64,000 nucleotides of DNA from Escherichia coli (lineage in GTDB: Bacteria > Pseudomonadota > Gammaproteobacteria > Enterobacterales > Enterobacteriaceae), in NCBI RefSeq assembly GCF_002854065.1, contig NZ_CP024147.1. One strand, 5' to 3'. Shown in pieces: positions 1-32,060 of this stretch. The translations under genes were made by a program, and so were the position numbers. Position 1 is the stretch's first letter. Each line of letters starts with the position of its first letter. The notes beneath the pieces are model-generated. The model saw only the letters and a list, made by a program, of their open reading frames with translations, did not search any database and had not been told where the DNA came from.

Positions 1-232
1 TGAGGCCAACGCCCATAATGCGGGCAGTTGCCCGGCATCCAACGCCATTCATGGCCATATCAATGATTTTCTGGTGCGTACCGGGTTGAGAAGCGGTGTA
101 AGTGAACTGCAGTTGCCATGTTTTACGGCAGTGAGAGCAGAGATAGCGCTGATGTCCGGCGGTGCTTTTGCCGTTACGCACCACCCCGTCAGTAGCTGAA
201 CAGGAGGGACAGCTGATAGAAACAGAAGCCAC
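1..232 (-). CDS. insA: IS1 InsA, 5' portion (3' end beyond window edge)
   Basis: Position-mapped from the complete copies (insA starts at IS1 position 56). Confidence 0.7.
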
Positions 233-287
233 TGGAGCACCTCAAAAACACCATCATACACTAAATCAGTAAGTTGGCAGCATCACC
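1..287 (-). mobile_element. IS1, partial copy in inverted orientation (IRL end at 287; remainder outside window)
   Basis: Reverse complement of the first 287 bp of the complete IS1 copies at 3932 and 9506; terminal ...GCATCACC at 281-287; sequence variant matches the 9506 copy. Confidence 0.85.
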
Positions 288-327
288 CGTCAGATGAAAG
301 AATTAATCGGTAACGAAGGAGATATTC

Positions 328-498
328 ATGTCACTTGCAACCACAGTGAAGGAGAGCAAGTTACAGAGACGCATGTACACGCAGAAAGCTCTCTGGTATC
401 GCCATAATGGCGACCGCGAAGGAATGCGGGTATGCCTTAATTTGTCCCGAGTCGAAGTATTAAATCAGCGTTATTTCCTTGGGCCGTGTCCATTCTGA
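328..498 (+). CDS. Hypothetical small protein (56 aa), prophage
   Basis: ATG at 328 preceded by AAGGAGA RBS; ends TGA 496-498; below the 60-aa cutoff of the ORF track; no recognisable motif. Confidence 0.3.
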   Translation: MSLATTVKESKLQRRMYTQKALWYRHNGDREGMRVCLNLSRVEVLNQRYFLGPCPF

Positions 499-506
499 GG
501 TGAATT

Positions 507-1214
507 ATGGATTTGAATAAATTCGATGAGCCATTCAGCCCTGAAGATATCGAATGGCGAATACAGCAAAGCGGTAAAACACGCGATGGCAAGGTGTGGG
601 CTATGGTGCTGGCTTATGTAACGAACCGGGCAATCATGAAACGCCTGAACGATGTTTGCGGCAAAGCAGGATGGCGCAATGAATACCGCGATATTCCCAA
701 CAACGGCGGAGTTGAATGCGGCATATCAATCAGGATTGATTCCGAATGGGTAACCAAATGGGATGCTGCTGAAAACACGCAGGTAGAAGCCGTCAAAGGT
801 GGTCGTTCCGGCGCAATGAAGCGCGCTGCCGTTCAATGGGGAATCGGTCGGTATCTGTATAACCTTGAGGAAGGTTTCGCACAAACATCTCTCGATAAAA
901 AGCAGGGGTGGCACAGGGCAAAACTGAAGGATGGAACAGGATTTTACTGGCTCCCTCCATCGCTGCCGGGATGGGCAATACCAGCATCAGATAACAAACC
1001 ATCACCAGAAAATACCAACCAGAAATCTCCATCGGTTGACTGCGAACAAATCCTGAAAGACTTCAGCGATTATGCATCAACAGAAACTGACAAGAAAAAA
1101 CTCATCGAGCGTTATCAGCGTGACTGGCAATTAATGGCTGGCAACGAGGAGGCGCAGGCTAAATGCGTTCAGGTAATGAGCATCAGAGTTAACGAACTAA
1201 AACAGGCGGCATAA
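507..1214 (+). CDS. Phage single-strand annealing protein, Rad52/Sak-like
   Basis: 235 aa with KRAAVQWGIGRYLY-type motif recalled from Rad52/Sak annealases; immediately followed by ssb. Confidence 0.55.
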   Translation: MDLNKFDEPFSPEDIEWRIQQSGKTRDGKVWAMVLAYVTNRAIMKRLNDVCGKAGWRNEYRDIPNNGGVECGISIRIDSEWVTKWDAAENTQVEAVKGGRSGAMKRAAVQWGIGRYLYNLEEGFAQTSLDKKQGWHRAKLKDGTGFYWLPPSLPGWAIPASDNKPSPENTNQKSPSVDCEQILKDFSDYASTETDKKKLIERYQRDWQLMAGNEEAQAKCVQVMSIRVNELKQAA

Positions 1215-1721
1215 ATGGCAAGCAGAGGCGTAAATAAGGTGATTATCCTTGGTCGGGTAGGACAAGACCCGGAAGTTCGATACTCACCATCAGGAACAGC
1301 GTTCGCTAACCTGACAATAGCCACGTCAGAACAATGGCGAGATAAAAATACTGGCGAGCAAAAGGAATTGACTGAATGGCATCGTGTTGCTGTATCCGGG
1401 AAACTGGCTGAGGTCGTGGGGCAGTATGTGAAAAAAGGTGATCAGATTTATTTCGAGGGAATGCTGAGAACCAGAAAGTGGAAAGACCAGTCAGGGCAAG
1501 ACCGTTACACAACCGAGGTTCATGTCGGAATTAATGGCGTGATGCAAATGCTTGGCGGCATTGGCGACAGCAAACAACAAGCAGCCAGCAGGCAATCACA
1601 GAAGCCACAGCAGCAATCATCACCAGCACAACACAACGAACCTCCGATGGATTTTGACGACGATATACCCTTTGCACCAGTAACTCTCCCCTTCCCTCGT
1701 CACGCTATTCACGCAATTTAA
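1215..1721 (+). CDS. ssb: Single-stranded DNA-binding protein, prophage-encoded, with 15-aa extension past the DDDIPF tail
   Basis: [23 protein letters not shown]... OB-fold N-terminus near-identical to enterobacterial SSB; acidic DFDDDIPF motif present but followed by [15 protein letters not shown]. Confidence 0.9.
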
Positions 1722-1734
1722 TCAGGAGAAAATC

Positions 1735-2031
1735 ATGCCAGCGCCTCTGTATGGTGCGGATGACGCGCGCCGCTGTTCCGGCAATTCCGTATCGGAGGTG
1801 CTGGATAAATTCAGGAAAAACTACAACCGGATAATGTCGCTACCGCAGGAAACGAAAGAGGAAAAGGAATTTCGCCACTGTATATGGCTTGCAGAGAAAG
1901 AAGAACGCGAGCGAATTTACCAGACATCAATCCGACCATTCCGCAAAGCCACATATACCCACTTCCCTGAATATATCGACCCGCGCCTGCGTAATTACCG
2001 CTCACGCTATGGCGCTATCAGTAATGACTGA
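1735..2031 (+). CDS. Hypothetical phage protein (98 aa)
   Basis: ORF following ssb with AGGAGA RBS; no recognisable motif. Confidence 0.45.
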
Positions 2032-2041
2032 GGAATTTACC

Positions 2042-2206
2042 ATGAGAGGACTTGCATACAATCCCGGAATTCTTCCGGCAGAAATGATTATTCGCCAACG
2101 CGTAAAGCCAATGCCATCGAGAGAGGAATTGCTTAAGAGAAAGAGTTTCGGTTCTGTTAATGACAACAAATATCTGAATGCGATGTGGCTGAGTGGGAAG
2201 AAATGA
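2042..2206 (+). CDS. Hypothetical small phage protein (54 aa)
   Basis: ATG at 2042 with GAGGA RBS; stop overlaps next start as ATGA (2203-2206). Confidence 0.3.
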
Positions 2207-2685
2207 AACAAATGACACTAATTGAGATGGATGGATTTCTGAAAGGTAAATGCATCCCATGTGATTTAAAGGTTAACGAAACAAACGCTGAATATCTTGT
2301 GCGTAAGTTCGGTGAACTTGAATCAAAACTAGAAACGGCGTTGCGGGAGTGTAGTTCTGCTGGAATCACGATTGATAACCTTGAGGCCAAGTGCGCGAAG
2401 ATGGCTGCTGAAAATACCTCGCTTAAGCAATCTGAGAAGGAATTTAATGACTTTTGTCGTGAGGAGTTTAGCGAATGGGAAGATGATGTTACTGAAACCC
2501 CAGCCACCGATGCTTTCCTGGCTGAAGTACGGGCGCAGGGGGTAGAGATGTACGCAGATAACCTCGACAACGGAGCAGACGACGCAGAACGAGGTGGTTT
2601 TGATTATGCCGCTAAGTTTCTACGCGGTGAGGCGTCTAGTGTACGCTTGTTCGCCGACCAGCTTCGCAAAGGAGGCAACCAGTGA
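2203..2685 (+). CDS. Hypothetical phage protein, possibly Ead/Ea22-like
   Basis: ATGA start/stop overlap with upstream ORF; acidic protein in a run of coupled small phage genes. Confidence 0.45.
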
Positions 2686-3161
2686 GCAAGATTAACTATC
2701 AGGCACTGCGTGAGGCGGCGGAACGTGCAATTCCAGCAATGGAACGCCTGTTAATGTTGCCAGTTGATGATGATTTGTTAAGTGAACAGGAACTTAAAGA
2801 TTACGGTGTGGATATTGATGCGCTCAACGCCTTCAAATTTCTGACCGGACCAGAAACCGTGCTGGCGCTGCTGGATGAGCTGGAAAGAAAACAGCAATAC
2901 ATCAAATCCCGAGACCAGGAGAACGAGGATATTGCGCTAACGGTAGGGAAGCTGCGCGTTGAGCTGGAAGCCGCAGAGAAGCGCATTGCTGAGCTGGAGT
3001 TGCGGGAGGTTGTGCTTCCGCAATGCTATAGCATGTTGCATCGCGTCGATTTTGACGAGCCTTACCACACTGAAATGGTTTACAGGCAGCATCAGGTTCT
3101 TGAGGCACTGCACAACGCTGGAATAAACGTCACCGAAGCAGGTAAAGGAGAGGCATCATGA
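2682..3161 (+). CDS. Ead/Ea22-like phage protein
   Basis: GTG start with AAAGGAGG RBS overlapping previous stop; N-terminal ...YQALREAAERA... resembles Ea22-like proteins as recalled. Confidence 0.45.
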   Translation: MSKINYQALREAAERAIPAMERLLMLPVDDDLLSEQELKDYGVDIDALNAFKFLTGPETVLALLDELERKQQYIKSRDQENEDIALTVGKLRVELEAAEKRIAELELREVVLPQCYSMLHRVDFDEPYHTEMVYRQHQVLEALHNAGINVTEAGKGEAS

Positions 3162-3670
3162 GCACTATCACAAGAGAATGGCTGCAGCAGGCTATCAACG
3201 ATTATGAAAGCGTTCGTGATGAGCTTCCTTTCGGGCTTGATGATTACCAGGGGAATATCCTGGCTGCCCTGCGTATCGCACTGGCATCGCTGGAAGCAGA
3301 GCCGGTGGCGTGGAAGGTAACATTCACGCAAATTGACCGTGAATATAACACGTTCACTGGTATGTATTCTGACAAAGCAGAAGTCGAACGGTGGGTGCGG
3401 CTGCATAAAGCATGTAATTTTCGGGCAGATATAACACCGCTTTATACCGCCAAGCCAGTGCCGGTAACTCCGGATGGTTGGATAAGCTGTAGTGAGCGAA
3501 TGCCAGAGGACGGTCAGCACGTAATTATTTTATGTGATGGCGCATTCGTTCTTTATGCGCAATATCGAGACGGAGAGTTTTTCGATATTGTCCGCAATGG
3601 TGATGAATTTTTCGAAACACAGAGTCGCAATGTAACCGACTGGATGCAACTACCAGAACCTCCCCTTTGA
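3158..3670 (+). CDS. DUF551-domain phage protein
   Basis: C-terminal W-x-SCSERMPEDG ... TDWMQLPEPP motif typical of DUF551. Confidence 0.55.
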   Translation: MSTITREWLQQAINDYESVRDELPFGLDDYQGNILAALRIALASLEAEPVAWKVTFTQIDREYNTFTGMYSDKAEVERWVRLHKACNFRADITPLYTAKPVPVTPDGWISCSERMPEDGQHVIILCDGAFVLYAQYRDGEFFDIVRNGDEFFETQSRNVTDWMQLPEPPL

Positions 3671-3766
3671 TAGCTAAGCTTATACATATCTTTTACATCA
3701 GCAATCTATTGTTAATCTCCAATCAATGTTACGTTGTCATCTCTCTCATGCTTTGGAGGTAGTGAT

Positions 3767-3958
3767 ATGTCTTGTCCAAAATGCGGTTCTGGAAATATTG
3801 CAAAAGAAAAAACAATGCGTGGATGGTCTGATGATTATGTGTGCTGCGATTGCGGATACAACGACTCTAAAGACGCATTTGGAGAGCGTGGTAAAAACGA
3901 GTTTGTCAAAATTAATAAAGAACGCGAAGGCGGTGATGCTGCCAACTTACTGATTTAG
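3767..3958 (+). CDS. Small zinc-ribbon protein (CxxC...CxxC); native last 4 codons displaced by IS1
   Basis: GGAGG RBS, MSCPKCGSGN...CCDCG; reading frame runs into IS1 at 3932; native C-terminus ...EREG-NEKS* reconstructable across the insertion. Confidence 0.5.
   Translation: MSCPKCGSGNIAKEKTMRGWSDDYVCCDCGYNDSKDAFGERGKNEFVKINKEREGGDAANLLI
3923..3931. repeat. 9-bp target site duplication (CGCGAAGGC), left copy
   Basis: Identical 9-mer directly abuts both ends of the IS1 at 3932-4699. Confidence 0.9.
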
Positions 3959-3986
3959 TGTATGATGGTGTTTTTGAGGTGCTCCA

Positions 3987-4262
3987 GTGGCTTCTGTTTC
4001 TATCAGCTGTCCCTCCTGTTCAGCTACTGACGGGGTGGTGCGTAACGGCAAAAGCACTGCCGGACATCAGCGCTATCTCTGCTCTCACTGCCGTAAAACA
4101 TGGCAACTGCAGTTCACTTACACCGCTTCTCAACCCGGTACGCACCAGAAAATCATTGATATGGCCATGAATGGCGTTGGATGCCGGGCAACCGCCCGCA
4201 TTATGGGCGTTGGCCTCAACACGATTTTCCGCCATTTAAAAAACTCAGGCCGCAGTCGGTAA
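3987..4262 (+). CDS. insA: IS1 InsA
   Basis: 91 aa [18 protein letters not shown]... Confidence 0.9.
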
Positions 4263-4684
4263 CCTCGCGCATACAGCCGGGCAGTGACGTCATCGTCTGC
4301 GCGGAAATGGACGAACAGTGGGGATACGTCGGGGCTAAATCGCGCCAGCGCTGGCTGTTTTACGCGTATGACAGGCTCCGGAAGACGGTTGTTGCGCACG
4401 TATTCGGTGAACGCACTATGGCGACGCTGGGGCGTCTTATGAGCCTGCTGTCACCCTTTGACGTGGTGATATGGATGACGGATGGCTGGCCGCTGTATGA
4501 ATCCCGCCTGAAGGGAAAGCTGCACGTAATCAGCAAGCGATATACGCAGCGAATTGAGCGGCATAACCTGAATCTGAGGCAGCACTTGGCACGGCTGGGA
4601 CGGAAGTCGCTGTCGTTCTCAAAATCGGTGGAGCTGCATGACAAAGTCATCGGGCATTATCTGAACATAAAACACTATCAATAA
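4181..4684 (+). CDS. insB: IS1 InsB frame (made as InsAB' by -1 frameshift)
   Basis: 167-aa ORF overlapping insA in -1 frame; A6C slippery motif intact. Confidence 0.85.
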
Positions 4685-4699
4685 GTTGGAGTCATTACC

Positions 4700-4708
4700 C
4701 GCGAAGGC
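4700..4708. repeat. 9-bp target site duplication (CGCGAAGGC), right copy
   Basis: Matches 3923-3931. Confidence 0.9.
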
Positions 4709-4786
4709 AACGAAAAAAGCTAATTTATTTATTCATATATGAAAACAATGTAATAAATATTCGAATTGAAGAATTGAAAGAACACC

Positions 4787-4810
4787 AAGCCGCCTGATGG
4801 CGGTTTTTTA
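4787..4810 (+). terminator. Rho-independent terminator-like hairpin
   Basis: GCCGCC-TGAT-GGCGGT stem-loop followed by TTTTTT. Confidence 0.5.
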
Positions 4811-4823
4811 TTGGAGACAAGAA

Positions 4824-5168
4824 ATGTCAGATTTGGCTATGAAGGTTTTGAAATGGCAATCGACTGGCGATGTCGGCATCAGTAGCGCAACTCTTGCCTC
4901 AATCGCATGTGGCCTGAAAAAGAATATCTATGGTCATCACTTCGGCGCTCCCCATGACGCAGCAGACTTTCGGCGATGCGTTGCACTTGTTGAGCAGATT
5001 CCAGAAATCAGAGATTCATTCGACAAGGTTGCAAAGCGCGTTCCGGCATTCAAAGGAATCCTCAACGAATGGGATTCACTCGTTGCTCTGTTGAAGTCTG
5101 AAATGAAGACGTACGGGAACAAAGCACCAGAGACTTACAGAAGAATCAGCGAGCTACGCAAGGACTAA
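4824..5168 (+). CDS. Hypothetical protein (114 aa), prophage cargo
   Basis: ATG at 4824 with GGAGA RBS directly after the terminator; no recognisable motif. Confidence 0.45.
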   Translation: MSDLAMKVLKWQSTGDVGISSATLASIACGLKKNIYGHHFGAPHDAADFRRCVALVEQIPEIRDSFDKVAKRVPAFKGILNEWDSLVALLKSEMKTYGNKAPETYRRISELRKD

Positions 5169-5245
5169 CGCCTCACACTCGATGAGGCCTGTACATATCT
5201 GATAGATCCGCTATATGGCGGTTTATTTTTGCCTGGAGAATTAAG

Positions 5246-5437
5246 ATGACCGATACCAGCCTGATTCCTGAGAAAGAAGTGATGAACAAGCTCGGTGTTT
5301 CATCACGTCAGACAATCTGGAACTATACCAAACGGCACGGATTTCCGAAGCCAGTCAGAACCCACCCCAAATCATACCTTCGTGAAGCTGTTGAAGGGTG
5401 GATTCTTAACGGTGGCGTTAATCAGAAATGCTCCTGA
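5246..5437 (+). CDS. alpA: AlpA-family phage transcriptional regulator / excisionase-like
   Basis: 63-aa HTH protein resembling AlpA (MTDTSLIPEKEVMNKLGVSSRQTIWNYTKRHGFPKP...); adjacent to integrase. Confidence 0.7.
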   Translation: MTDTSLIPEKEVMNKLGVSSRQTIWNYTKRHGFPKPVRTHPKSYLREAVEGWILNGGVNQKCS

Positions 5438-6596
5438 TGTGCCAGAACAATTTATCAGCGTGAAGCTCATACGCTTTGCGCTGAGCCTCTATCCAGTCGT
5501 GTTTATTGTATACGGACATTATCCCGCCAAGTTCATGACCGAGCATTCGCTCAGTAACATGAGGCTCGACATTCATCTCGGACAGACGTGTAACAAGCGT
5601 TCTTCTGAAATCGTGTGTTCGCCAGTAACCTAGATCCATCCCTCCCCTTATTCTATTTACGAATCGGTTGGCTGCAGCGATGCTGATCGGTTTGTTTATG
5701 TCTTCTCCAGGGAAAAGAACATCATTGTACGTTGTCATGGCCTTTTCGAGGAAAGGCTTAATTTGTTCGAAGATTGGACGGCGGATAACATTACCCATCT
5801 TGCTATGCTCTTTCGGTACGGTCCATACGTTTTCCAGCAGGTCAAATTCTGTCTTTTTTGCCAGCCTAAGCTCTGAGAGCCTCGCCCCCCACAGCATAAG
5901 CATCTGATGAAGTAGCTTATTTGACGTAGACGCACGGCTTCTTTCAATAGCAAGCCAAATCTTAGCCAGTTCGTGATACGACAGTACCCGATCCCCTACC
6001 TCAGCGCGGGAGCCGAAGTCCCTTGGTTGGATGCTCATAATTGCGCAACTATCTATCAACTGACGCCGCATGCACCAACTTATTGCTGATCTTAGTTGAC
6101 TTAGCACCTGCCTTGCTCGGCGTGGATTATCTCTTTCTTCTTCGGTAAGCAGGTCAACCCATTGCTTAACCGTGATAGAAGATGCCGGACGATTAGGAAA
6201 GGCGTCATGCATGCGCTTCATAACCGTTGATCGGTAAAGTGCCTGGGTCTTTTCTCTGAGAGTTGTAGAGACGTAGTTGTCGAACCAGTAGTCGAGACAC
6301 TGGGCGACCGTCATGGAGTTCTCCACCTTCTCTTCAAAATAAGTGCGTGGATCCGTTCCTGAGAAATAGAGCTTTCGCAAGTCAGCAGTGATCTGTCTGG
6401 CATCCTTCAAAGACAGGGATGGGTATCGACCAAGCCCAAGTCGATTAGGCTTGCCATGCCAGCGATAGCGGTACTGGAACTGGATGACCCCCTTCGGTGA
6501 AATTCGTACGCTGAGGCCATCGGCATCAGCCACTTCTTGTGGGCCCGAATATGGTTTACCATAAATACTACGCAGTTTTGTGTCGCTTATAGCCAT
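5418..6596 (-). CDS. int: Tyrosine-type site-specific integrase (P4/CP4-57-like)
   Basis: 392 aa; C-terminal catalytic region with R...HDFRRT...LGH...Y motifs. Confidence 0.9.
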   Translation of the reverse strand: MAISDTKLRSIYGKPYSGPQEVADADGLSVRISPKGVIQFQYRYRWHGKPNRLGLGRYPSLSLKDARQITADLRKLYFSGTDPRTYFEEKVENSMTVAQCLDYWFDNYVSTTLREKTQALYRSTVMKRMHDAFPNRPASSITVKQWVDLLTEEERDNPRRARQVLSQLRSAISWCMRRQLIDSCAIMSIQPRDFGSRAEVGDRVLSYHELAKIWLAIERSRASTSNKLLHQMLMLWGARLSELRLAKKTEFDLLENVWTVPKEHSKMGNVIRRPIFEQIKPFLEKAMTTYNDVLFPGEDINKPISIAAANRFVNRIRGGMDLGYWRTHDFRRTLVTRLSEMNVEPHVTERMLGHELGGIMSVYNKHDWIEAQRKAYELHADKLFWHIRSISD

Positions 6597-6777
6597 AAAT
6601 AATATTTGGTACGCTCAGAAATAATGGTTTGGTACACATCTGGTACACAATATCACATGGACAACAGCGCACAGTAAACAACTATATTTGACGTTCGTAG
6701 ACATACTCAGGTGAAAAAATGGTTGTTTTTCGAGTTATAACAGACAGTTAATTAACTACAGTGGACAATGCTAGACA

Positions 6778-8202
6778 ATGACAGACGCAGATAAACAACC
6801 TACCTTCCTCTTTCACGATTACGAAACCTTTGGCACGCACCCCGCGTTAGATCGCCCTGCACAGTTCGCAGCCATTCGCACCGATAGCGAATTCAATGTC
6901 ATCGGAGAACCCGAAGTCTTTTACTGCAAGCCCGCTGATGACTATTTACCCCAGCCAGGAGCAGTATTAATTACCGGTATTACCCCGCAGGAAGCACGGG
7001 CGAAAGGAGAAAACGAAGCCGCGTTTGCCGCCCGTATTCACTTGCTTTTTACCGTACCGAAGACCTGTATTCTGGGCTACAACAATGTGCGTTTCGACGA
7101 CGAAGTCACACGCAACATTTTTTATCGTAATTTCTACGATCCTTACGCCTGGAGCTGGCAAAACCGCAATTCGCGCTGGGATCTGCTTGACGTGATGCGC
7201 GCCTGCTATGCCCTGCGCCCGGACGGCATCAACTGGCCGGAAAACGACGACGGTCTGCCGAGCTTCCGCCTGGAACATCTCACCAAGGCCAACGGTATTG
7301 AACACAGTAACGCCCATGATGCGATGGCCGACGTTTACGCGACCATCGCCATGGCGAAGCTGGTGAAGGCCCAACAGCCAAAGCTGTTTGATTATCTGTA
7401 TGCCTACCGGGGCAAAAACAAGCTGATGACGCTGATTGACGTCCCGCAGATGAAGCCACTGGTGCATGTCTCGGGAATGTTTGGCGCCTGGCGCGGAAAC
7501 ACCAGCTGGATTGCGCCGCTGGCCTGGCATCCGGATAACCGTAATGCGGTGATCATGGTCGACCTGGCGGGCGACATCGCCCCGCTGCTCGAGCTGGATG
7601 CCGATACGCTGCGCGAGCGCCTGTATACGCCGAAGGCCGAGCTCGGCGACAGTTCGCCGGTGCCGATTAAGCTGGTGCATCTGAATAAGTGCCCGGTGCT
7701 GGCGCAGGCCAATACCCTGCGCCCAGAAGACGCTGACCGTTTAGGCATTAACCGACAGCACTGCCTGGATAACCTGAAACTGCTGCGCGATAACCCGCAG
7801 GTGCGCGAGAAGGTGGTGGCGATTTTTGCTGAAGCCGAGCCGTTTGTCGCATCGGACAACGTCGACGCCCAGCTTTATAACGGTTTCTTTAGCGACGCCG
7901 ACCGCGCGGCGATGAAAATCGTGCTGGAGACCGAGCCGCGCAATCTGCCGGCGCTGGACATTACCTTCGCCGACCCGCGTATTGAGAAGCTGCTGTTTAA
8001 CTTCCGCGCGCGCAACTTCCCCGGCACGCTGGATGAAAACGAGCAACAGCGCTGGCTGGAACACCGTCGGCAGATCTTCACCCCGGAATTTTTACAGGCC
8101 TACGCCCAGCAACTGGAGATGTTGTACGGTCAGTATGAGGGGAATAACGAGAAGCTATCGCTGCTGAAGGCGCTGTATCAGTACGTGCAGGAGATTGTTT
8201 AA
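6778..8202 (+). CDS. sbcB: Exodeoxyribonuclease I
   Basis: 474 aa, near-colinear with E. coli SbcB (FLFHDYETFGTHPALDRPAQFAAIRTD...). Confidence 0.95.
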   Translation: MTDADKQPTFLFHDYETFGTHPALDRPAQFAAIRTDSEFNVIGEPEVFYCKPADDYLPQPGAVLITGITPQEARAKGENEAAFAARIHLLFTVPKTCILGYNNVRFDDEVTRNIFYRNFYDPYAWSWQNRNSRWDLLDVMRACYALRPDGINWPENDDGLPSFRLEHLTKANGIEHSNAHDAMADVYATIAMAKLVKAQQPKLFDYLYAYRGKNKLMTLIDVPQMKPLVHVSGMFGAWRGNTSWIAPLAWHPDNRNAVIMVDLAGDIAPLLELDADTLRERLYTPKAELGDSSPVPIKLVHLNKCPVLAQANTLRPEDADRLGINRQHCLDNLKLLRDNPQVREKVVAIFAEAEPFVASDNVDAQLYNGFFSDADRAAMKIVLETEPRNLPALDITFADPRIEKLLFNFRARNFPGTLDENEQQRWLEHRRQIFTPEFLQAYAQQLEMLYGQYEGNNEKLSLLKALYQYVQEIV

Positions 8203-8211
8203 TTCAACGCA

Positions 8212-8240
8212 GCGACGCCGGAAAATCTTCCCGGCGTCGC
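8212..8240. terminator. GC-rich hairpin between convergent sbcB and yeeD (putative bidirectional terminator)
   Basis: GCGACGCCGG-AAAATCTTC-CCGGCGTCGC perfect 10-bp stem; weak flanking U-tracts. Confidence 0.4.
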
Positions 8241-8255
8241 TTGATGCCTGGGGCA

Positions 8256-8480
8256 TTATTTCTGTACGGTGATGGTCCACGCCGCATCGCCAGACTGCTG
8301 ATAGTCCGTGACCGTAAAGCCCTCTTCCGCCGCCCACTGCGGGATGGCTTCCGTCGCCTGAGTACAGTCGAACTCAATCACCAGCTGGTCGCCGCTGGCC
8401 AGTTCCGCCATCGCCGCCTTCGCTTCAATTAACGGGAACGGGCAAACCTGCGTGACTACGTCCAGTTTCTTCACAACCAT
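8256..8480 (-). CDS. yeeD: TusA-like sulfur carrier protein YeeD
   Basis: 74 aa with CPFP motif; conserved position downstream of yeeE. Confidence 0.85.
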   Translation of the reverse strand: MVVKKLDVVTQVCPFPLIEAKAAMAELASGDQLVIEFDCTQATEAIPQWAAEEGFTVTDYQQSGDAAWTITVQK

Positions 8481-8525
8481 TTTTTCTACTCCTTAAGCCG
8501 TTGCGGTTTTCAGTTTTGCTTTCCG

Positions 8526-9505
8526 CTACGGGCGAACATACAACATCCACGACGCGCACCACACGCCGAGAATCATAAATACCAGGCCAATCCAGCCCTG
8601 CCAGGTCATCATCGCCGTCATCACCAAACCGTTGCCGATCGAGCAGCCGCCGGCAATGCTGGCACCGAAGCCCATCAGTACGCCGCCACCCGCGCTACGC
8701 AGCGTGGTGCTGGCATCGGCAGCGCGGACGCGGAATTCACGGCTGGCTTTCGCGGCAATAAACGAACCGATAAAGATTCCCAGCACCAGGAAGACGCCCC
8801 AGTTGAGGTACTTGCTGTCACCCCCCACCAGGAACTGCAGGATATTGGCGGTCGGCGAGGTAATGCCAAGGCCAAACATACGTCCGGTGGCCTCACTCAG
8901 CGGCCAGGCCAGCAGGGCGATAAGGCCAATCAGCACGGCGGTCACAAACGGATGCCAACGCTTTTCAAACAGCAGATGCGCCAGGCCAGTGCGGCGCGGC
9001 GGCAGAGAAGCTACTTTGAGCTTTGGTTTGCTCAGCTCTTTGCGAACAAACCACAGGGTCACCGCCACCAGCAGAACGATAAGTGGCCAGACGGAGATAT
9101 TCAGGGTTTCGGCAATGCCGTTGTGAGTGGTCGTGTGTTGACCGAGGAATTTGTTAAGCCCAGCCGCGTGCGGTGAACGCATGATCGCGCTCATCACCAT
9201 ATAGGTGACCAGTGCAATCCAGCTGCCAATCAGCCCTTCCCCGGCACGATACCAGGTGCCGGTGGCGCAGCCTCCCGCATAAACGATACCGATACCAAAA
9301 ACAAATCCACCCACCACGGTGCCAAGCCACGGGAACGCGCCTGCATCGTACTGCACCAGGCCAAGCTGGATCAGGGCGAACACGCCGATACTCTGGATAC
9401 AGATAGCAATCAACAGTGCGTAAAACATGCGGTTATTTTTGGTGATATACATATCGCGAAAGCCACCCGTCAGGCAGAAACGACCGCGCTGCATAACGAA
9501 TCCCA
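8526..9505 (-). pseudogene. yeeE: yeeE (tsuA) thiosulfate transporter, 3' portion from codon ~18 onward, separated from its 5' end by IS1
   Basis: Homology to YeeE begins at ...GFVMQRGRFCLTGGFRDMY; codons upstream of 9505 run directly into the IS1 end at 9506. Confidence 0.85.
9497..9505. repeat. 9-bp target site duplication (CGAATCCCA), left copy
   Basis: Identical 9-mer at 10274-10282 abutting the other IS1 end. Confidence 0.9.
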
Positions 9506-9560
9506 GGTGATGCTGCCAACTTACTGATTTAGTGTATGATGGTGTTTTTGAGGTGCTCCA

Positions 9561-9836
9561 GTGGCTTCTGTTTCTATCAGCTGTCCCTCCTGTTCAGCTA
9601 CTGACGGGGTGGTGCGTAACGGCAAAAGCACCGCCGGACATCAGCGCTATCTCTGCTCTCACTGCCGTAAAACATGGCAACTGCAGTTCACTTACACCGC
9701 TTCTCAACCCGGTACGCACCAGAAAATCATTGATATGGCCATGAATGGCGTTGGATGCCGGGCAACTGCCCGCATTATGGGCGTTGGCCTCAACACGATT
9801 TTACGTCACTTAAAAAACTCAGGCCGCAGTCGGTAA
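9561..9836 (+). CDS. insA: IS1 InsA
   Basis: 91 aa. Confidence 0.9.
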
Positions 9837-10258
9837 CCTCGCGCATACAGCCGGGCAGTGACGTCATCGTCTGCGCGGAAATGGACGAACAGTGGGGCTA
9901 TGTCGGGGCTAAATCGCGCCAGCGCTGGCTGTTTTACGCGTATGACAGTCTCCGGAAGACGGTTGTTGCGCACGTATTCGGTGAACGCACTATGGCGACG
10001 CTGGGGCGTCTTATGAGCCTGCTGTCACCCTTTGACGTGGTGATATGGATGACGGATGGCTGGCCGCTGTATGAATCCCGCCTGAAGGGAAAGCTGCACG
10101 TAATCAGCAAGCGATATACGCAGCGAATTGAGCGGCATAACCTGAATCTGAGGCAGCACCTGGCACGGCTGGGACGGAAGTCGCTGTCGTTCTCAAAATC
10201 GGTGGAGCTGCATGACAAAGTCATCGGGCATTATCTGAACATAAAACACTATCAATAA
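9755..10258 (+). CDS. insB: IS1 InsB frame
   Basis: 167 aa; A6C motif intact. Confidence 0.85.
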
Positions 10259-10273
10259 GTTGGAGTCATTACC

Positions 10274-10325
10274 CGAATCCCAGTAAAGCCCCGCAAATCA
10301 TGCCACTTATTATCATGTGCAACAT
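10274..10325 (-). pseudogene. yeeE: yeeE 5' fragment (first 17 codons, MLHMIISGMICGALLGF) including the right-hand TSD copy
   Basis: Reverse-strand translation matches the YeeE N-terminus; rejoining across the IS1 (minus one TSD copy) restores ...ALLGFVMQRGRF. Confidence 0.8.
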
Positions 10326-11874: not shown

Positions 11875-12221
11875 GGTCAGTCTCCATTACGGCGATGGCC
11901 GGCGCAAAATTGAAAAATTGCCCCATTTTTTTTCTGTTTCCTCAGCGACAACGACTGTCGTTTTTTAAGTAAGTATCTATCCGGTACGAAGCCCGGCCTC
12001 TTTAATTTGATGGTTGTTTTGATGTAAAAAAAATAACCGACGCGGCAAGCACGTCGGTTAATCTCAATTTTTTACATTCGACATATTTTGCCCCAAACGG
12101 TAGCAAAAAGACAAGCCGCTGAGAGCATAATCAGCACGCCTTCTCGTCTAAACGACTGATAATTCAGCAACTCCCGAATCATAAATCTCATCAATAGCAC
12201 TATTTGCTAAAACAGCGGCGA

Positions 12222-13221: not shown

Positions 13222-13272
13222 ATGAGCCGCGTTCAATTTAAACACCACCATCATCACCATCATCCTGACTAG
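13222..13272 (+). CDS. hisL: his operon leader peptide ([16 protein letters not shown])
   Basis: 16-codon ORF with seven consecutive His codons. Confidence 0.9.
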
Positions 13273-13333
13273 TCTTTCAGGCGATGTGTGCTGGGAGACA
13301 TTCAGATCTTCCAGTGGTGCATGAACGCAAGAG

Positions 13334-13370
13334 AGCCCCCGGAAGATCATCTTCCGGGGGCTTTTTTTTG
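13334..13370 (+). terminator. his attenuator terminator
   Basis: AGCCCCCGGAAGATCATCTTCCGGGGGCT hairpin followed by TTTTTTTT, between hisL and hisG. Confidence 0.9.
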
Positions 13371-23246: not shown

Positions 23247-23417
23247 TACATACTCCTGTCAGGTAGTATCTGTCTATGAACAGACAGAATTTAAGAAATT
23301 ATATATTAGGAGAACGACAAGTTGTATAAAGAAATAGATGTTTGAGTGAAATTAATAACTGTCATAAGTAACTAAAAAAACGCATAGCGACAAGCTCAGA
23401 TAAGTTGTTGCTCAATA

Positions 23418-24563
23418 TTAGAGCACTTCTTGCATTGTGAGTTTATTATAGATTTGAACGGTTTTTCGTATGACAACGGTAGATGAATACTTTTCCTCTA
23501 CTCGCTTTCTGGCATTCTGCCCCATCTTAGTGCGCTCAAGAGGATCGCTAATAAGGATACCAAGCTTCTGAGAAAATAGGTTCACATTTCCTTTAGGCAC
23601 AAGGAAACCGTTATAACCGTCAAGTATTAAACTCCCACAACCACCAGTGTCAAAACTTATAACAGGACGACCGATTGCACCGGCTTCTAAAAGAATTCGA
23701 GGAATACCTTCAGAGTAAACAGATGGCAAAGCGACTATATCCACACTTTCAATTAATTCCTTGATATCGCTACGCTTGCCCAGCCAAATGATATCACCGG
23801 AGTTATGCCACTCTTCTATCTGAGTTATACTTATAGCGTCGCGATCATTGTCAACAAGAATGCCCGCAACTAATATCTCAAATTCGATGCCTTGTAATTT
23901 TAAAATTCTACTAGCATCAATTAACGTGCGTAGCCCTTTACTCCAAAGCATGCGACTTGCAAAAAAAACTTTAACCTTGGTATTATTAGGTGGTGTACTA
24001 TAACAAAAATAGTCTATATTAATACCTGCGCCATCAATAACTTCAGTTTTATTTTTTGGAATATCTAATAGTTCAATTATTTTTTGCTGATCTTTTTTAT
24101 GTTCAAAGAGGATACAACAATCAATATTTAAGAAAAATCTTCTATACATATTAGCAATTAAGAACTTAACCATTTGGTAAATGACCTTATTGCTTTCAAA
24201 AACTCTACCTAACCCAACAAAACTATAGACCATTTTTTTGTTTCGGATTCTGGCCCATAAACAACTAATCACACCAGGTTTAATCGTGACGCTATGCACA
24301 ATATCAGGATTAATTTTATTCAATGTTCTAAATGAGCGAGTTATATCGCAAAAGAAAACAACAGGATTGATATTTTGCTCTTTTATTTTACTATCAATAC
24401 ACTTAAATCCTAAACTAGTAAAGCGATCCAGAATAGACTTGTCAGAATAATTCGCAAAAATATAGACATCATATCCTGCTTCCAGAACTGATAAGGCACG
24501 ATCTAACCAATGTAATTCGAAATACCAAGCGGAGTTCACAAAATAACATATCTTTATTTTCAT
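23418..24563 (-). CDS. Glycosyltransferase, family 1 (GT4-like)
   Basis: 381 aa with C-terminal GT1 motifs (SEGIPRILLEAGAIGRPVIS); AT-rich. Confidence 0.75.
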   Translation of the reverse strand: MKIKICYFVNSAWYFELHWLDRALSVLEAGYDVYIFANYSDKSILDRFTSLGFKCIDSKIKEQNINPVVFFCDITRSFRTLNKINPDIVHSVTIKPGVISCLWARIRNKKMVYSFVGLGRVFESNKVIYQMVKFLIANMYRRFFLNIDCCILFEHKKDQQKIIELLDIPKNKTEVIDGAGINIDYFCYSTPPNNTKVKVFFASRMLWSKGLRTLIDASRILKLQGIEFEILVAGILVDNDRDAISITQIEEWHNSGDIIWLGKRSDIKELIESVDIVALPSVYSEGIPRILLEAGAIGRPVISFDTGGCGSLILDGYNGFLVPKGNVNLFSQKLGILISDPLERTKMGQNARKRVEEKYSSTVVIRKTVQIYNKLTMQEVL

Positions 24564-24718
24564 ATTTAAAACTCACATCTCCTTCCTTAAGCTATTATCC
24601 TGTTAAAATTTAAAACCTCAGCACGTCATCTTATACTTCGAAGAAAATATCAGTTTTAAATAAAGCAAAACAAATCATCCCTGATTTGTTTGTGAATCAA
24701 AATAAAGACTATTACAAA

Positions 24719-26878
24719 TCACCAACACACAAGCATGTATTCATACACCAGATCACGCTCAGGCTGGAGGTGAACAAACTTGAATTGATAACCCATATTG
24801 AGATTTTCAACAAATTTCTTACATTCAAAAATTTGCTCTGGCTGCAACCACAAGTGATAAACAGAAATCAGCAACACGGGCTTGTGTTTTTTGATTGTCT
24901 CGATTGCACCATTAAGGGCATTAATCTCATAGCCTTCAATATCGAATTTAATCAAACCAACACGATCTTCAAACGTCAGACTATCAATAGTGACCGATTG
25001 AACTTTAATGTCAGACTGCTCGTCTTCAACAACACATGAGCCTACTCCATCATCCCCAACTTTCATCATCGAAAGTTCGCCAGATACATTGCTGACAGCA
25101 ACATTTAAGGGTTTAATAGTATCATTTAAATATTGATGATTACGCTCAAGATTCCGAACCATACAGTTATAATTATCAGCTACAGGTTCTAAGGCAAGTA
25201 CTTCTTTAAATCCAAAGCTAGCGAACATGATAGCTGTATCACCAACCCAAGCCCCACAATCTATAGCAACAGAGCCTTTGAATTCTTCAGTGAATCGGCC
25301 TGGAAGATACTTCAAGCCAGCTTTGAAATAGTTGGTTGCTAGAGTAACCGGTAATTCAGATAGATCAAGATGCTGAATTAATTCTTTTTCGTGACGTAAG
25401 ATTGAATCAATATTTGACAATATAACTCTATCTTCATCCGTAAATAATGTTAAAGATAAAGGTAATTCCAACTCAATGCCTTGATGTTCAAAGTATGGCA
25501 GTAATTCATAAAAACCAAATAATTTCCTCTCATTTTGAAGGCTAAATTCATCAAGGCCGCGTTTGAATTCTTCACGTAGTTTAGAGATCCGAGAGGAATT
25601 TACCTTCATGTAATAATAAAACTGGTTAGTAGGCGCTACTTTTATTAGTACAGAACCATTTTTATTCTGTCCTGAAATGACATCGACTTTATCAGTAAGT
25701 TCTTTCGACATCTTCAAAAATGAAGAATCTAACTCCTCCCGAAAATGTTTGGAAAGTAAAGATGAGGAGGAATCCATTTTTGATGAAACAGCATTAATAA
25801 TTGGTTCAATTATTAATTTGTTAGTAATAAAACGTAGTTTGGAAACGACTTTCTTTTTAATCCTGTTTCTTGTCTGAACTGTTTTTATAATCCTGTTACT
25901 CATCAACTCATTATAAATTGGAAGAACATGATTATAATAATAGTCATTTGTATCGGAGGAAAATGAAACATTAGAAGTTACTGGCTGGAAACCTTCTTCT
26001 TTAGCCTGTTCAAAAACAGCAATAGCAGCTTCCTGATATGACTTCAATCCATCGCCTCTCAAACGAGAAGAATGGAAAACTAAATCAAAAAGATGGTGAA
26101 AATAAAAATGATTCAGGTATTTTTGAAACGTTCCAACACTAAGAAGGTGTTTTTTTATAATATCATAATTATTAAAAGATATTAATGCCTTGTCAGCACT
26201 AGCACTGGATGAGCCCACGTTCATGACCCTGTAGTTATAAACAGGCACATTCAAAAGAGTTATCTTTTCTACAGAGGCATAGGTGATGAATTTAAAGGGC
26301 ATATCCTGATATGAAGCCCCAGGACTTTCATAGAAGCGAATATGATTTTCTTCAAGAAAATCTCTTCTATACAAGCCAGTCCAGATTGATGATTCAAGCA
26401 AGAAAAGCTCAACTGAATTTTCTGGTACAATTTCTGCCAAGTTATCATTATCAAATGTACATAAATGCGCAAGGGACTGAGTATTGATTACAACTTCATT
26501 ACTTATTCTATTGAAACTTGCTTTAATGACCGGATTCGGGATTTTATTATAAGCGTCTATTAGACGCTCAAACATATCAAGCTGAACCCAATCGTCTGTT
26601 TCGATGATAGAAATAAAATCGCCGCTTGCAACATCTAGCCCAGAGTTGATTGCAGCTCCGTAACCTGCGTTTTTTTTATGGATAGCAATAATTCTTGTAT
26701 CGCTCGAAGCGTATCGATCAATAATCTGAGGGCAAGCATCAGGGCTACCGTCATTGACTATTATTATTTCCAGATTCTTATATGTTTGAGACAGAACACT
26801 GTCGAGACATTGCTCTAAATAAACTTCGCCGCCGTATACAGGTAAAATAACGGAAATTTTAAAGATATCATCACCCAT
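24719..26878 (-). CDS. Multidomain protein: N-terminal GT2 glycosyltransferase, central linker, C-terminal FkbM-family methyltransferase
   Basis: N-terminus ISVILPVYGGEVYLEQCLDSVLSQTY...ETDDW (GT2, DxD); C-terminus AIDCGAWVGDTAIMFASFG...FDIEGYE (FkbM-like SAM methyltransferase); ~180-aa region between them of unknown fold. Confidence 0.7.
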   Translation of the reverse strand: MGDDIFKISVILPVYGGEVYLEQCLDSVLSQTYKNLEIIIVNDGSPDACPQIIDRYASSDTRIIAIHKKNAGYGAAINSGLDVASGDFISIIETDDWVQLDMFERLIDAYNKIPNPVIKASFNRISNEVVINTQSLAHLCTFDNDNLAEIVPENSVELFLLESSIWTGLYRRDFLEENHIRFYESPGASYQDMPFKFITYASVEKITLLNVPVYNYRVMNVGSSSASADKALISFNNYDIIKKHLLSVGTFQKYLNHFYFHHLFDLVFHSSRLRGDGLKSYQEAAIAVFEQAKEEGFQPVTSNVSFSSDTNDYYYNHVLPIYNELMSNRIIKTVQTRNRIKKKVVSKLRFITNKLIIEPIINAVSSKMDSSSSLLSKHFREELDSSFLKMSKELTDKVDVISGQNKNGSVLIKVAPTNQFYYYMKVNSSRISKLREEFKRGLDEFSLQNERKLFGFYELLPYFEHQGIELELPLSLTLFTDEDRVILSNIDSILRHEKELIQHLDLSELPVTLATNYFKAGLKYLPGRFTEEFKGSVAIDCGAWVGDTAIMFASFGFKEVLALEPVADNYNCMVRNLERNHQYLNDTIKPLNVAVSNVSGELSMMKVGDDGVGSCVVEDEQSDIKVQSVTIDSLTFEDRVGLIKFDIEGYEINALNGAIETIKKHKPVLLISVYHLWLQPEQIFECKKFVENLNMGYQFKFVHLQPERDLVYEYMLVCW

Positions 26879-28199
26879 TGTCTTTCAAAACCTTTCGCAA
26901 AGTGGATTGGAAATTATAGCGCTGATTAAAGTTGGCAAAGACATTTCGACTATGAGTAGCCATGTTAATGAGCTCATCTTTTTTAAGCGATGTAATGAAC
27001 TCAGCACACTTTTGCGCAGATTCGATCTGATGGTACGCTTCTGTCGACTCAATCCCTTCCATAGCAGCTTTAGTTGAAACTAATGGAACACCATAAGAAA
27101 GCGCCTCCAGACATTTAACTTTCAACCCTGAAAGTAATTCATCTGGATTGATAATTACATCGCAGGAATGGTAGAACTTATCAAGGCTCTCACAAAAACC
27201 GAGGATATTAACAAAACCAGGGTACTGTCTACCTTCAAGAGCTCCGCAAATTGTTCCTGAAATATCGAGTCTTACATTATGATCAAGTTTACTTAAGCTA
27301 TCGATAAAATTGTTGATCGCAACGACATTTGGATAGTGCCCAGAGGCCATAAAGCCAACAACGATCTTTTTATTGGATGTTGGGACATAATCAATAAAGT
27401 TTACGTCCAGAATAGGTGGCTGAACAATGACTTGGGAACTAACATTCTCCCTGAAGTAACGGCCTTCTGCTTCTTGAATAGCAAATATATAATTAGCTCT
27501 TGATAACCCAATGGTTTCTTCTTTCTTCGATGTAGAGAAATAGAATTTATCTTGTGAAATACCAATTTTTGCCATTCGAGTGTTCCTCTTAGCAAAAACA
27601 TCGTGAGTATCGATCACTGAGACTGTATTAGGTTTAAGGTATAAACACAATTTTGACAGGAAGACATAATTAACAATTGCAATCTGATAATTATTCATCG
27701 CAGAAAGTGCAGCAACAAATTGACATATTTCATCATCAAGCCAATCGTCAATTTTATTTCCATCAGGAATTATTTGCTGATTGACATCGTGTCTTAGAGT
27801 GCCGAACTTTCCGTTCCGACATTTTATATTATAAGTATAATCCCAATCAACACTATTTGAATCCCAAGGTGAATTATTGAAAACAATAGCGTGAATTGTG
27901 AATCCTAGGGATTTTAATGTCGCAATTTTTGTATCAATATTTTTCCCGACGGCATCATTTCCATAAAAAGGCATAATGACTAGCGCATTTTTATCTGAAC
28001 TTGACTTTAAAATTTTTGGAAAAACAGTAAATTCATTTGCATTTTGTTCAGCATTAACGTTCAACGCTTTAATTAATAACCGCCTTGGGTAATGAGCGTT
28101 AACCATGAGGGCAAATAATTTCCAAAGCTTACGTGCGAGCCTGGTATACCTGAATTTAACAAAAGCTTTCTTCAAAAATCTGGTGATTGTGTTTTTCAT
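26871..28199 (-). CDS. Glycosyltransferase, family 1, with N-terminal domain of unknown function
   Basis: 442 aa; C-terminal GT1 motif (KCLEALSYGVPLVSTK); N-terminal ~200 aa unassigned. Confidence 0.7.
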   Translation of the reverse strand: MKNTITRFLKKAFVKFRYTRLARKLWKLFALMVNAHYPRRLLIKALNVNAEQNANEFTVFPKILKSSSDKNALVIMPFYGNDAVGKNIDTKIATLKSLGFTIHAIVFNNSPWDSNSVDWDYTYNIKCRNGKFGTLRHDVNQQIIPDGNKIDDWLDDEICQFVAALSAMNNYQIAIVNYVFLSKLCLYLKPNTVSVIDTHDVFAKRNTRMAKIGISQDKFYFSTSKKEETIGLSRANYIFAIQEAEGRYFRENVSSQVIVQPPILDVNFIDYVPTSNKKIVVGFMASGHYPNVVAINNFIDSLSKLDHNVRLDISGTICGALEGRQYPGFVNILGFCESLDKFYHSCDVIINPDELLSGLKVKCLEALSYGVPLVSTKAAMEGIESTEAYHQIESAQKCAEFITSLKKDELINMATHSRNVFANFNQRYNFQSTLRKVLKDNG

Positions 28200-28726
28200 A
28201 ATGGAATAGATAACAGATCAGAATAAACTGGATATGTGGCATAACCTACAGCAGGAATCTGATGGCCCGTCTCAACTAAAAAAACTCGGCCCAACCCAAA
28301 CTTTAATCCGGCTTCTACATCACCCAGTTTATCACCAACAATAAAAGATTGTTTTAAGTCAATGGAATAATCACGAGCTGCAGACTCGAACATACCCGTA
28401 TTAGGTTTGCGGCACGAACAATCACATCGATATTCAGGGACAATTCCATCTGGATGATGAGGGCAATAATAGATATCTAATATATCGATACCCTGTGATT
28501 TCAAGATACCCCTATACCACTTTGTCAATTTATCATAATCAGATAAGGTGTAATATCCTTTGGCAATTCCGGCCTGATTTGTCACAATGATTATTTTATA
28601 ACCATGAGCAATAAATCTTTTCATGCCACTGATACAGTTTTTGGTAAATTCAAAATCTTCAATTTTATATAGATAATTGACTTCCTTATTAATTACACCA
28701 TCGCGATCAAGAAATGCCACTTTCAT
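28196..28726 (-). CDS. gmhB: D-glycero-D-manno-heptose 1,7-bisphosphate phosphatase (HAD family)
   Basis: 176 aa, FLDRDGVIN HAD motif I; within heptose gene block. Confidence 0.8.
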   Translation of the reverse strand: MKVAFLDRDGVINKEVNYLYKIEDFEFTKNCISGMKRFIAHGYKIIIVTNQAGIAKGYYTLSDYDKLTKWYRGILKSQGIDILDIYYCPHHPDGIVPEYRCDCSCRKPNTGMFESAARDYSIDLKQSFIVGDKLGDVEAGLKFGLGRVFLVETGHQIPAVGYATYPVYSDLLSIPL

Positions 28727-29400: not shown

Positions 29401-29402
29401 AA

Positions 29403-29993
29403 TTATTTATCTTCTGGTTTGAAAATGGCACGTTCAACAATTGCGCAGATCATATGACCAATGCAAATATGGCATTCTTGAATGTATGGTGTAATTTTAG
29501 AAGGTACATTAATTGAATAGTCTACCAAATCTTTAAGCTTACCTGCTTCACCACATAGCGCCACGCTTGTCACACCCAGTTCTTTTGCCAGTTCCATCGC
29601 GTTAATGATATTAACGGAGTTACCTGAAGTACTGATGCCAATGAAAACATCACCTGGCTTGCTTTGAGCTTGCAGTTGTCTTGCAAATAGTTTATCAAAT
29701 CCGTAGTCATTGCCGATAGCCGTTAGCATCGAGGTATCAGTGGTGATAGCAATGGCTGGTAATCCTGGTCTATCGAAAAAGAAGCGACTGACGAACTCAG
29801 CCGCGATATGCTGAGAATCAGCAGCACTACCACCATTCCCGGCAAGAATTACTTTATTCCCGTTTTTATATGCATTGATAATCAAATCTGCAACTAAAGA
29901 GATTTGGCTCAATACACTGTCAGATTCCTGAAGCAATTTTTTTACTGCAATGCTGTCATCAAGATATGCTTTAATATAATTTACATTGTCCAT
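29403..29993 (-). CDS. gmhA: Sedoheptulose 7-phosphate isomerase (SIS domain)
   Basis: 196 aa; GNGGSAADSQH motif. Confidence 0.8.
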   Translation of the reverse strand: MDNVNYIKAYLDDSIAVKKLLQESDSVLSQISLVADLIINAYKNGNKVILAGNGGSAADSQHIAAEFVSRFFFDRPGLPAIAITTDTSMLTAIGNDYGFDKLFARQLQAQSKPGDVFIGISTSGNSVNIINAMELAKELGVTSVALCGEAGKLKDLVDYSINVPSKITPYIQECHICIGHMICAIVERAIFKPEDK

Positions 29994-31009: not shown

Positions 31010-31025
31010 AACAAAAGAATCCCTA

Positions 31026-32054: not shown

Positions 32055-32060
32055 ATATGC

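Follow-up and report, generated by a model that had tools for sequence, protein, structure and literature searches.

The IS1 element described here almost certainly arose by simple transposition into the 3' terminal part of eaG, a small non-essential gene in the PL-transcribed early-left ('ea') region of a P22-like/lambdoid prophage that lies beside sbcB in a strain of Escherichia coli O52. The feature is real and is a textbook IS1 insertion, known in kind. The only mildly novel point is that an IS1 insertion recurs at the same site elsewhere, which suggests that the site is an IS1 hot spot. Positions are those of the window, the whole stretch of 64,000 nucleotides that was analysed, and the features are collected in Table 1. 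If the known mechanism of IS1 applies, the InsAB' transposase would be produced through -1 frameshifting at A6C, would cut the target at CGCGAAGGC with a stagger of 9 bp and would join the IS ends to it, and repair of the staggered cuts would then leave a 9-bp duplication.

Table 1. Features of the eaG insertion, its prophage and the other IS1 copies in the window
Feature	Positions	Strand	Basis or remark
Partial IS1 copy	1-287	-	cut by the window edge
Early-left arm of lambdoid/P22-like prophage, adjoining sbcB	288-6596		ORFs, domain and PHROG matches
Small phrog_1723 ORF of the early-left arm			
Rad52-type recombinase	507-1214		
ssb	1215-1721		
abc2, anti-RecBCD	1735-2031		
Ead/Ea22-like gene	2682-3161		
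DUF551 gene	3158-3670		
eaG ORF, interrupted	3767-3958	+	55 native codons (to 3931), 8 IS1 codons and TAG inside IRL
Target duplication, left copy, 9 bp, CGCGAAGGC	3923-3931		sequence reading, script, motif count
IRL, left terminal inverted repeat	3932-3954	+	18/23 match with IRR
Promoter-like site, predicted	3939-3966	+	where PIS1 is expected
insA, 91 aa, GTG start; repressor / N-terminal part of transposase	3987-4262	+	ORF and exact protein lookup
insB' open frame	4181-4684	+	ORF list and script
A6C motif AAAAAAC, -1 frameshift site fusing insA to insB'	4238-4244	+	IS position 307
IRR, right terminal inverted repeat	4677-4699	-	18/23 match with IRL
Target duplication, right copy, 9 bp, CGCGAAGGC	4700-4708		sequence reading, script, motif count
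Displaced 3' end of eaG, AAC GAA AAA AGC TAA (NEKS and stop)	4709-4723	+	sequence and intact alleles
Hairpin and T-run, intrinsic-terminator-like	4787-4812	+	prediction and P22 annotation
phrog_1229 ORF, downstream of eaG::IS1	4824-5168		
AlpA-like xis	5246-5437		
int, tyrosine integrase, convergent with xis	5418-6596	-	
yeeE IS1 copy	9506-10273	+	own duplication, CGAATCCCA

The element is 768 bp long, lies at 3932-4699 on the plus strand and is complete, both on reading the sequence and in a scripted check; the original prediction of an IS1 at this place with 9-bp direct repeats was exact. It begins with GGTGATGCTGCCAACTTACTGAT and ends with AAGTTGGAGTCATTACC, and has the form expected of the IS1 family, a length of about 768 bp with imperfect terminal repeats of about 23 bp that start GGTGATGC... 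and GGTAATGA... A target duplication of 8 or 9 bp is the rule for IS1 (PMC12903888), and here the two CGCGAAGGC repeats are perfect and directly abut both ends of the element. The 9-mer itself occurs five times in the 64-kb window against an expectation of 0.9, and the chance that two copies would exactly abut both ends is about 4^-9. The perfect duplication at 3923 and 4700 implies that this copy has undergone no later IS1-IS1 recombination.

The interior of the element is equally regular. The PIS1 promoter overlaps IRL in IS1 (PMC12903888), which is where the promoter-like site is predicted. The exact InsA protein of the eaG copy is found on more than 1000 contigs, where it is named IS1 InsA. 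A conceptual -1 shift at A6C gives an open InsAB' frame of 232 aa (3987-4684), in keeping with the programmed -1 frameshift of IS1 (PMC12903888); the anatomy of IS1, its frameshift and its 8/9-bp duplication are described in both PMC12903888 and PMC12428005. The copy is full-length and, as judged from its sequence, apparently functional.

The gene that was struck starts with the ATG at 3767, with a GGAGG ribosome-binding site upstream, and its present product ends ...KEREG-GDAANLLI at a stop codon at 3958, within the left end of IS1. Removal of IS1 and of one repeat restores a frame (ATG 3767 to 3931, joined to 4709-4723), MSCPKCGSGNIAKEKTMRGWSDDYVCCDCGYNDSKDAFGERGKNEFVKINKEREGNEKS, which encodes a Cys4 zinc-ribbon protein of 59 aa with the N-terminal pattern MSCPKCGSG...VCCDCGY... 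and the end ...KEREGNEKS. The zinc-ribbon cysteines are C3, C6, C26 and C29, and all four are encoded 5' of the insertion. The insertion therefore replaces four residues at the C-terminus of EaG by eight that are encoded by the IS, and the zinc ribbon is kept. This had been foreseen exactly, as the loss of NEKS and the gain of eight IS residues by a small CxxC...CxxC prophage gene, and the restored ORF can now be equated with a known protein, since its exact product is present on 759 contigs as 'Eag protein'.

Homology and genomic position agree in assigning this gene to EaG, the P22 ea-region protein of PHROG 2945. The restored protein matches phrog_2945 (PHROG category 'unknown function') with E = 2.3e-31, the restored DNA is 97.3% identical to the P22 eaG region, and the genes at this place in related RefSeq prophages are named 'Eag protein'. 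The zinc-ribbon matches of EaG in Pfam and NCBIfam are all below threshold (Lar_restr_allev at 23 bits with a cut-off of 28.6, HVO_2753_ZBP and PRK14890). The neighbours of eaG in P22 are eaA on one side and, on the other, a hairpin that is annotated as terminating the aI antisense RNA; eaC, xis and int lie downstream. The window gene resembles P22 eaG in having 59 codons and in lying at the same place, ahead of a hairpin (the hairpin proper is at 4787-4806, 3' of the gene) and of the end of the PL operon that holds xis and int. An Rfam scan of the 3.6-5.3 kb region found no RNA family. Unlike P22, the window carries an E. coli prophage at the sbcB site, with an integrase of the Arm-DNA-bind_3 type on the opposite strand, and its eaG is interrupted 12 nt before the stop codon.

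The surrounding genes are those of a lambdoid/P22-like early-left module beside its attachment site. Complete prophages occupy the same site in strains SY3626 and CUWW06, and the gene order in the window is collinear with that of the SY3626 prophage and of eaG-bearing prophages elsewhere. The original prediction had proposed a comparison with uninterrupted homologous prophages, and this comparison bears it out: in the E. coli relatives examined, uninterrupted eaG loci read straight across the insertion point, and the eaG flanks are contiguous in every one of them. No rearrangement accompanied the insertion, because both sides are collinear with intact prophages. At the start of the window, the partial IS1 meets the prophage at a point 36 bp beyond where kil lies in SY3626. 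A 9-bp repeat of the CCGTCAGAT type on the far side of that copy would point to a simple insertion there, whilst unrelated DNA would point to an IS1-mediated deletion or inversion.

A 23-mer from the left end of IS1 has three sites in the window, at 265-287 on the minus strand and at 3932 and 9506 on the plus strand, and none in shuffled sequence. A repeat finder run on the window recovered the same three copies, so that the yeeE copy and the partial copy, both of which had been noted at the outset, are real. Over its 287 nt, the partial copy shows no difference from the yeeE copy. Isoforms were typed against the six annotated IS1 copies of K-12 MG1655. Compared with these over 768 nt and with no gaps, the eaG copy differs by 2 nt from IS1B and IS1C, by 4 from IS1D and by 9 from IS1A and IS1E, and the yeeE copy is 1 nt from IS1A and IS1E. 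The eaG copy also differs at 9 nt from the IS1A-type yeeE and partial copies. By sequence, then, the eaG copy is an IS1B/C-type (plasmid-type) isoform, and it is 99.9% identical, 1 nt off, to copies named 'IS1-like element IS1B family' in RefSeq that are carried by many enterobacterial plasmids.

With IS1B and IS1C of K-12 the eaG copy has in common the length of 768 bp, the 18/23 repeats, insA and insB', the A6C motif and a 9-bp duplication, but it lacks the L217Q change that they carry, as it lacks the H193Y change of IS1D. The architecture of IS1A and IS1E, the 'consensus' and active K-12 isoform, is again the same, and the InsAB' of the eaG copy differs from theirs solely by L81F and S130R. 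A synonymous T at IS position 655 is private to the eaG copy. In K-12, IS1A and IS1E alone transpose readily, the rate for IS1B, IS1C and IS1D being about 1 per 10^10 cells, and L81F has been proposed as a candidate cause of this low mobility (PMC12428005). L81F lies in the helix-turn-helix of the InsAB' encoded by the eaG copy and is common to IS1B, IS1C and IS1D of K-12, and it may lower the activity of the eaG copy. The ORFs of this copy are intact, with H193 and L217 kept and L81F present. Chen et al. in 1998 reportedly put differences in IS1 transposability down to H193 and L217, with L217Q lowering transposability.

The eaG and yeeE copies are independent events, as had been claimed, because each has its own duplication and the two isoforms are 9 nt apart. 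They are in direct orientation and bracket 4.8 kb (3932-4699 and 9506-10273), an arrangement that a joint arrival as a composite IS1 transposon or cointegrate carrying int-sbcB-yeeD-yeeE' would also produce. The likelihood of such an origin is practically nil, however, given separate 9-bp duplications (CGCGAAGGC against CGAATCCCA), two different isoforms, and native intervening DNA that is collinear with that of CUWW06 and SY3626; it was ruled out on the first two of these grounds.

Beyond the yeeE copy, at 10274-64000, the window contains plaP, the his operon, gnd/ugd, an O-antigen cluster with wzm/wzt of the O52 type, and the colanic acid genes. This segment is 99.983% identical to E. coli CUWW06, with no gaps and 9 SNPs in 53.7 kb, and by its sequence the host is an E. 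coli O52 strain. A Shigella origin, which had been suspected from the density of IS1, was ruled out by the 99.98% identity to CUWW06 and by the O52 cluster. CUWW06 itself is a wastewater isolate from Thailand.

The original prediction also held that the IS1 copies reflect recent transposition in this genome, and this stands for yeeE only. In CUWW06, yeeE (tsuA) is intact, and the bases common to both alignment blocks are precisely those of the duplication. The alignment thus marks the yeeE insertion as demonstrably very recent and simple, since it is absent from a strain only 9 SNPs in 53.7 kb away. The eaG copy could instead have been imported, because the CUWW06 prophage differs and the xis-int module is about 35-fold more diverged than the backbone; it is, besides, of the IS1B/C type that moves so rarely in K-12. 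The prophage of CUWW06 at dacD/sbcB has gam-bet-exo and no eaG. Between 5170 and 9506 the window differs from CUWW06 by 10 SNPs, 9 of which fall in the xis-int module (5207-6390); the module thus has 9 SNPs in about 1.4 kb, compared with 10 SNPs in about 56 kb of backbone. This difference implies that the prophage has been exchanged since the strain split from CUWW06.

The junction created by the insertion is rare. The 2-kb region as it stands is present in none of 5426 complete E. coli genomes, and a BLAST search of these for the left junction returned strain S1 only. No match was found to an exact 43-mer of the junction among the GTDB representative genomes, or to a junction 30-mer in the JGI metagenomes; the same 30-mer found one contig in IMG/VR, which carries the S1-type allele. 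Exact lookup of the window's fusion protein in an index of 153 billion genes, in its 63-aa form or in the 74-aa form from an alternative start, gave no match. The S1-type fusion protein, in contrast to that of the window, was met on 7 contigs, drawn from metagenomes and other assemblies and each with the S1-type context.

Misassembly often stems from IS copies, and an assembler could have misplaced an IS1 consensus here. That such an artefact explains the eaG copy is highly improbable. Its 9 differences from the other two copies in the window are unlike what a collapsed consensus would give, its flanks are unique, the 9-bp duplication is exact at both junctions, and a like junction is found in S1, in other assemblies and in metagenome contigs.

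As to where the insertion took place, IS1 may have entered eaG in an earlier host or in a free phage lineage and have been imported with the prophage at sbcB, and this is a possible, though not the favoured, course of events. The near-identical backbone of CUWW06 with a different, eaG-less prophage at dacD/sbcB would fit it, as would the elevated divergence of xis-int, with the prophage exchange that this implies, and the presence of a plasmid-type IS1B isoform next to two IS1A-type neighbours. Moreover, eaG is non-essential in P22-like phages, and an IS-bearing phage could stay viable. Against import, no donor has been seen: the junction was met only as the S1-type allele in the viral collection and the 5426 E. 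coli genomes and not at all in the metagenomes or the GTDB representatives, and the exact fusion protein is missing from the 153-billion-gene index. Transposition within the present lineage is also plausible, as the lineage looks rich in IS1. There are at least 40 IS1 matches in the near-identical relative, with a median per genome of about 10-11 places, which would fit such a lineage.

In the S1 allele (NZ_CP010226), the base at which IS1 entered eaG, the orientation of the element and the CGCGAAGGC duplication all agree with the window, and the fusion protein is one residue apart from that of the window (D for E). S1 was isolated from a mouse. Its locus lies in a P22-like prophage remnant at torI/dsdC, unlike the sbcB-site prophage of the window. 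Counted over 349 bp, 5 SNPs distinguish the flanks of the two insertions, some to the left and some to the right of the IS, and the elements themselves differ by 8 substitutions and two deletions. The S1 element is decayed, with deletions of 1 nt and 13 nt, and is IS1A-like at positions 127-396 with a G at 444. When the empty site of S1 is reconstructed, at least 7 genomes have an uninterrupted locus that matches it at 100% over 349 bp. The empty site of the window reaches at most 98.9% identity with any uninterrupted E. coli eaG locus, and three substitutions in its right flank (4754, 4755 and 4774) are private to it.

The simplest reading of these comparisons would be that S1 and the window carry two independent insertions at one site. 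The alternative is that both junctions descend from one ancestral insertion, which was spread by prophage recombination and altered by IS1-IS1 gene conversion. The identity of site, orientation and 9-bp duplication is what common descent would give; the homology is confined to a mosaic module of limited length (window 3632-4813), such as lambdoid phages exchange, and the apparent mosaicism of the S1 element, IS1A-like at 127-396 with the IS1B-type G at 444, is compatible with a conversion tract. Nevertheless, common descent seems unlikely. The perfect match of the S1 empty site to at least 7 genomes over 349 bp implies that the S1 insertion is young relative to the divergence of the alleles, the 5 flank differences lie on both sides of the IS, and the two elements are separated by 8 substitutions and two deletions. 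In addition, a third IS1, in strain LF4-1, suggests that the region is hit repeatedly. This copy is divergent, with 38-44 differences from the K-12 copies, and lies about 110 bp from the eaG site; on the right it ends directly at the start of the downstream ORF, and its left side is deleted.

On balance, it is somewhat probable that the 3' end of eaG, a G+C-rich 9-mer within a strongly A+T-rich stretch that P22-like and lambdoid prophages conserve, is an IS1 hot spot. In at least two unrelated prophages, different IS1 isoforms would then have struck it independently at one and the same base and with one orientation, and a further insertion lies about 110 bp off. IS1 reportedly prefers A+T-rich regions with G or C at the ends of the duplication (work of Meyer in 1980 and Zerbib in 1985). 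The composition of the eaG target fits this classical preference: CGCGAAGGC is a 9-mer of 78% G+C within a 100-bp stretch of 71% A+T, and the A+T content rises to 80-87% just downstream, in a window of 50%. An IHF site was considered as an explanation for the hot spot and was ruled out, as the 100 bp to each side contain no exact match to the IHF consensus WATCAANNNNTTR and just one site with a single mismatch. Similarity of the target to the ends of IS1 is not significant, the best local score of 10 being reached by 161 of 500 shuffles. A search of the literature for IS1 in P22 eaG found no report.

The consequences of the insertion are probably slight. The truncated and fused EaG protein may still fold, because the zinc-ribbon core is untouched. 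Because of the insertion, the hairpin, the downstream ORF and xis lie 768 bp further from eaG, and IS1 insertions are polar. N-antiterminated transcription from PL overrides IS polarity, and an otherwise intact phage could for this reason tolerate the insertion. For the host, the insertion is probably nearly neutral. Pairs of IS1 copies within a span of 10 kb are potential substrates for deletion, inversion or the formation of a composite transposon: int-sbcB-yeeD-yeeE' lies between the members of the direct pair (3932 and 9506), and the early-left arm between those of the inverted pair (1-287 and 3932).

Taken alone, one more IS1 copy in a prophage gene is of little importance. The eaG::IS1 junction can serve as a strain marker, with one other allele among the 5426 complete E. 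coli genomes. The recurrence at one site provides a natural, if minor, instance of IS1 target preference, and it illustrates how temperate phages can act as carriers of IS elements between hosts. If the hot spot is true, the early-left arms of prophages would be recurrent, near-neutral landing pads for IS1 and vehicles for its spread.

The IS1 copy in yeeE/tsuA differs by 1 nt from the K-12 isoform IS1A. It is missing from the near-identical E. coli relative CUWW06, which over 53.7 kb is otherwise 99.98% identical; this copy therefore arose very recently, by simple insertion, and inactivates the thiosulfate transporter gene. The partial IS1 at the start of the window is identical to the yeeE copy across 287 nt. 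Its left end adjoins prophage DNA, with the junction 36 bp past kil as placed on the collinear prophage of E. coli SY3626. This copy may have inserted simply, or it may mark the place where IS1 deleted or inverted the remainder of the prophage.

Features of the window and of IS1-bearing loci in two other E. coli strains
Feature	Coordinates	Details
Partial IS1	1-287	minus strand; truncated by window edge
Substitutions right of eaG IS1	4754, 4755, 4774	C to T, C to A, C to T
DNA between direct IS1 pair	within 3932-10273	eaG 3' end, ORF, xis, int, sbcB, yeeD, part of yeeE
IS1 in yeeE/tsuA	9506-10273	IS1A-type
Duplication flanking yeeE IS1	9497-9505 and 10274-10282	9 bp, CGAATCCCA
STnc240 sRNA	12025-12101	Rfam scan
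His operon leader	13248-13369	Rfam scan
O-antigen cluster	23400-39750	O52-type, ABC-transporter pathway; wzm/wzt, fcf1, glf, rfbAB
JUMPstart elements	39716-39754 and 63886-63923	
algC RNA motif	49402-49451	upstream of cpsG; Rfam scan
IS1, E. coli S1	L001 6301-7054 (NZ_CP010226)	prophage remnant at torI/dsdC
IS1, E. coli LF4-1	L014 5001-5768 (NZ_CM141450)	divergent isoform

Comparison with CUWW06 also bears on the prophage itself. The chromosomal backbone (6600-64000) differs at 10 sites in about 56 kb, whereas the xis-int module (within 5170-6600) carries 9 differences over about 1.4 kb and the early-left arm is wholly unlike that of CUWW06. These two near-clonal strains thus carry different prophages at one and the same sbcB attachment site.

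For the window's reconstructed empty eaG site, no full-length match above 98.9% identity was found among complete E. coli genomes. Three substitutions in the A+T-rich spacer, 46-66 bp rightward of the eaG IS1, are private to the window in an alignment with five other alleles. The IS1 of E. coli S1 shares its exact insertion site, orientation and duplication with the eaG IS1, and the prophage remnant that hosts it is a different one; this copy is largely IS1A-like, with G at position 444, and has decayed through 1-nt and 13-nt deletions. The LF4-1 element is 38-44 nt from the K-12 copies, and its right end is fused to the beginning of the ORF that follows eaG, at a point about 110 bp away from where IS1 sits in the window, with eaG and all DNA to its left deleted.

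Elsewhere in the window, the O52-type cluster is rarely shared: of 5426 complete E. coli genomes, only 4 have it at 100% identity. STnc240, the His operon leader and the algC RNA motif are ordinary chromosomal features.

The IS1 copies also form pairs. An inverted pair (1-287 and 3932-4699) flanks 3.6 kb of prophage recombination genes, and a direct pair (within 3932-10273) flanks 4.8 kb and is potentially a composite transposon or a substrate for deletion. Deletion between the direct copies would take out sbcB.
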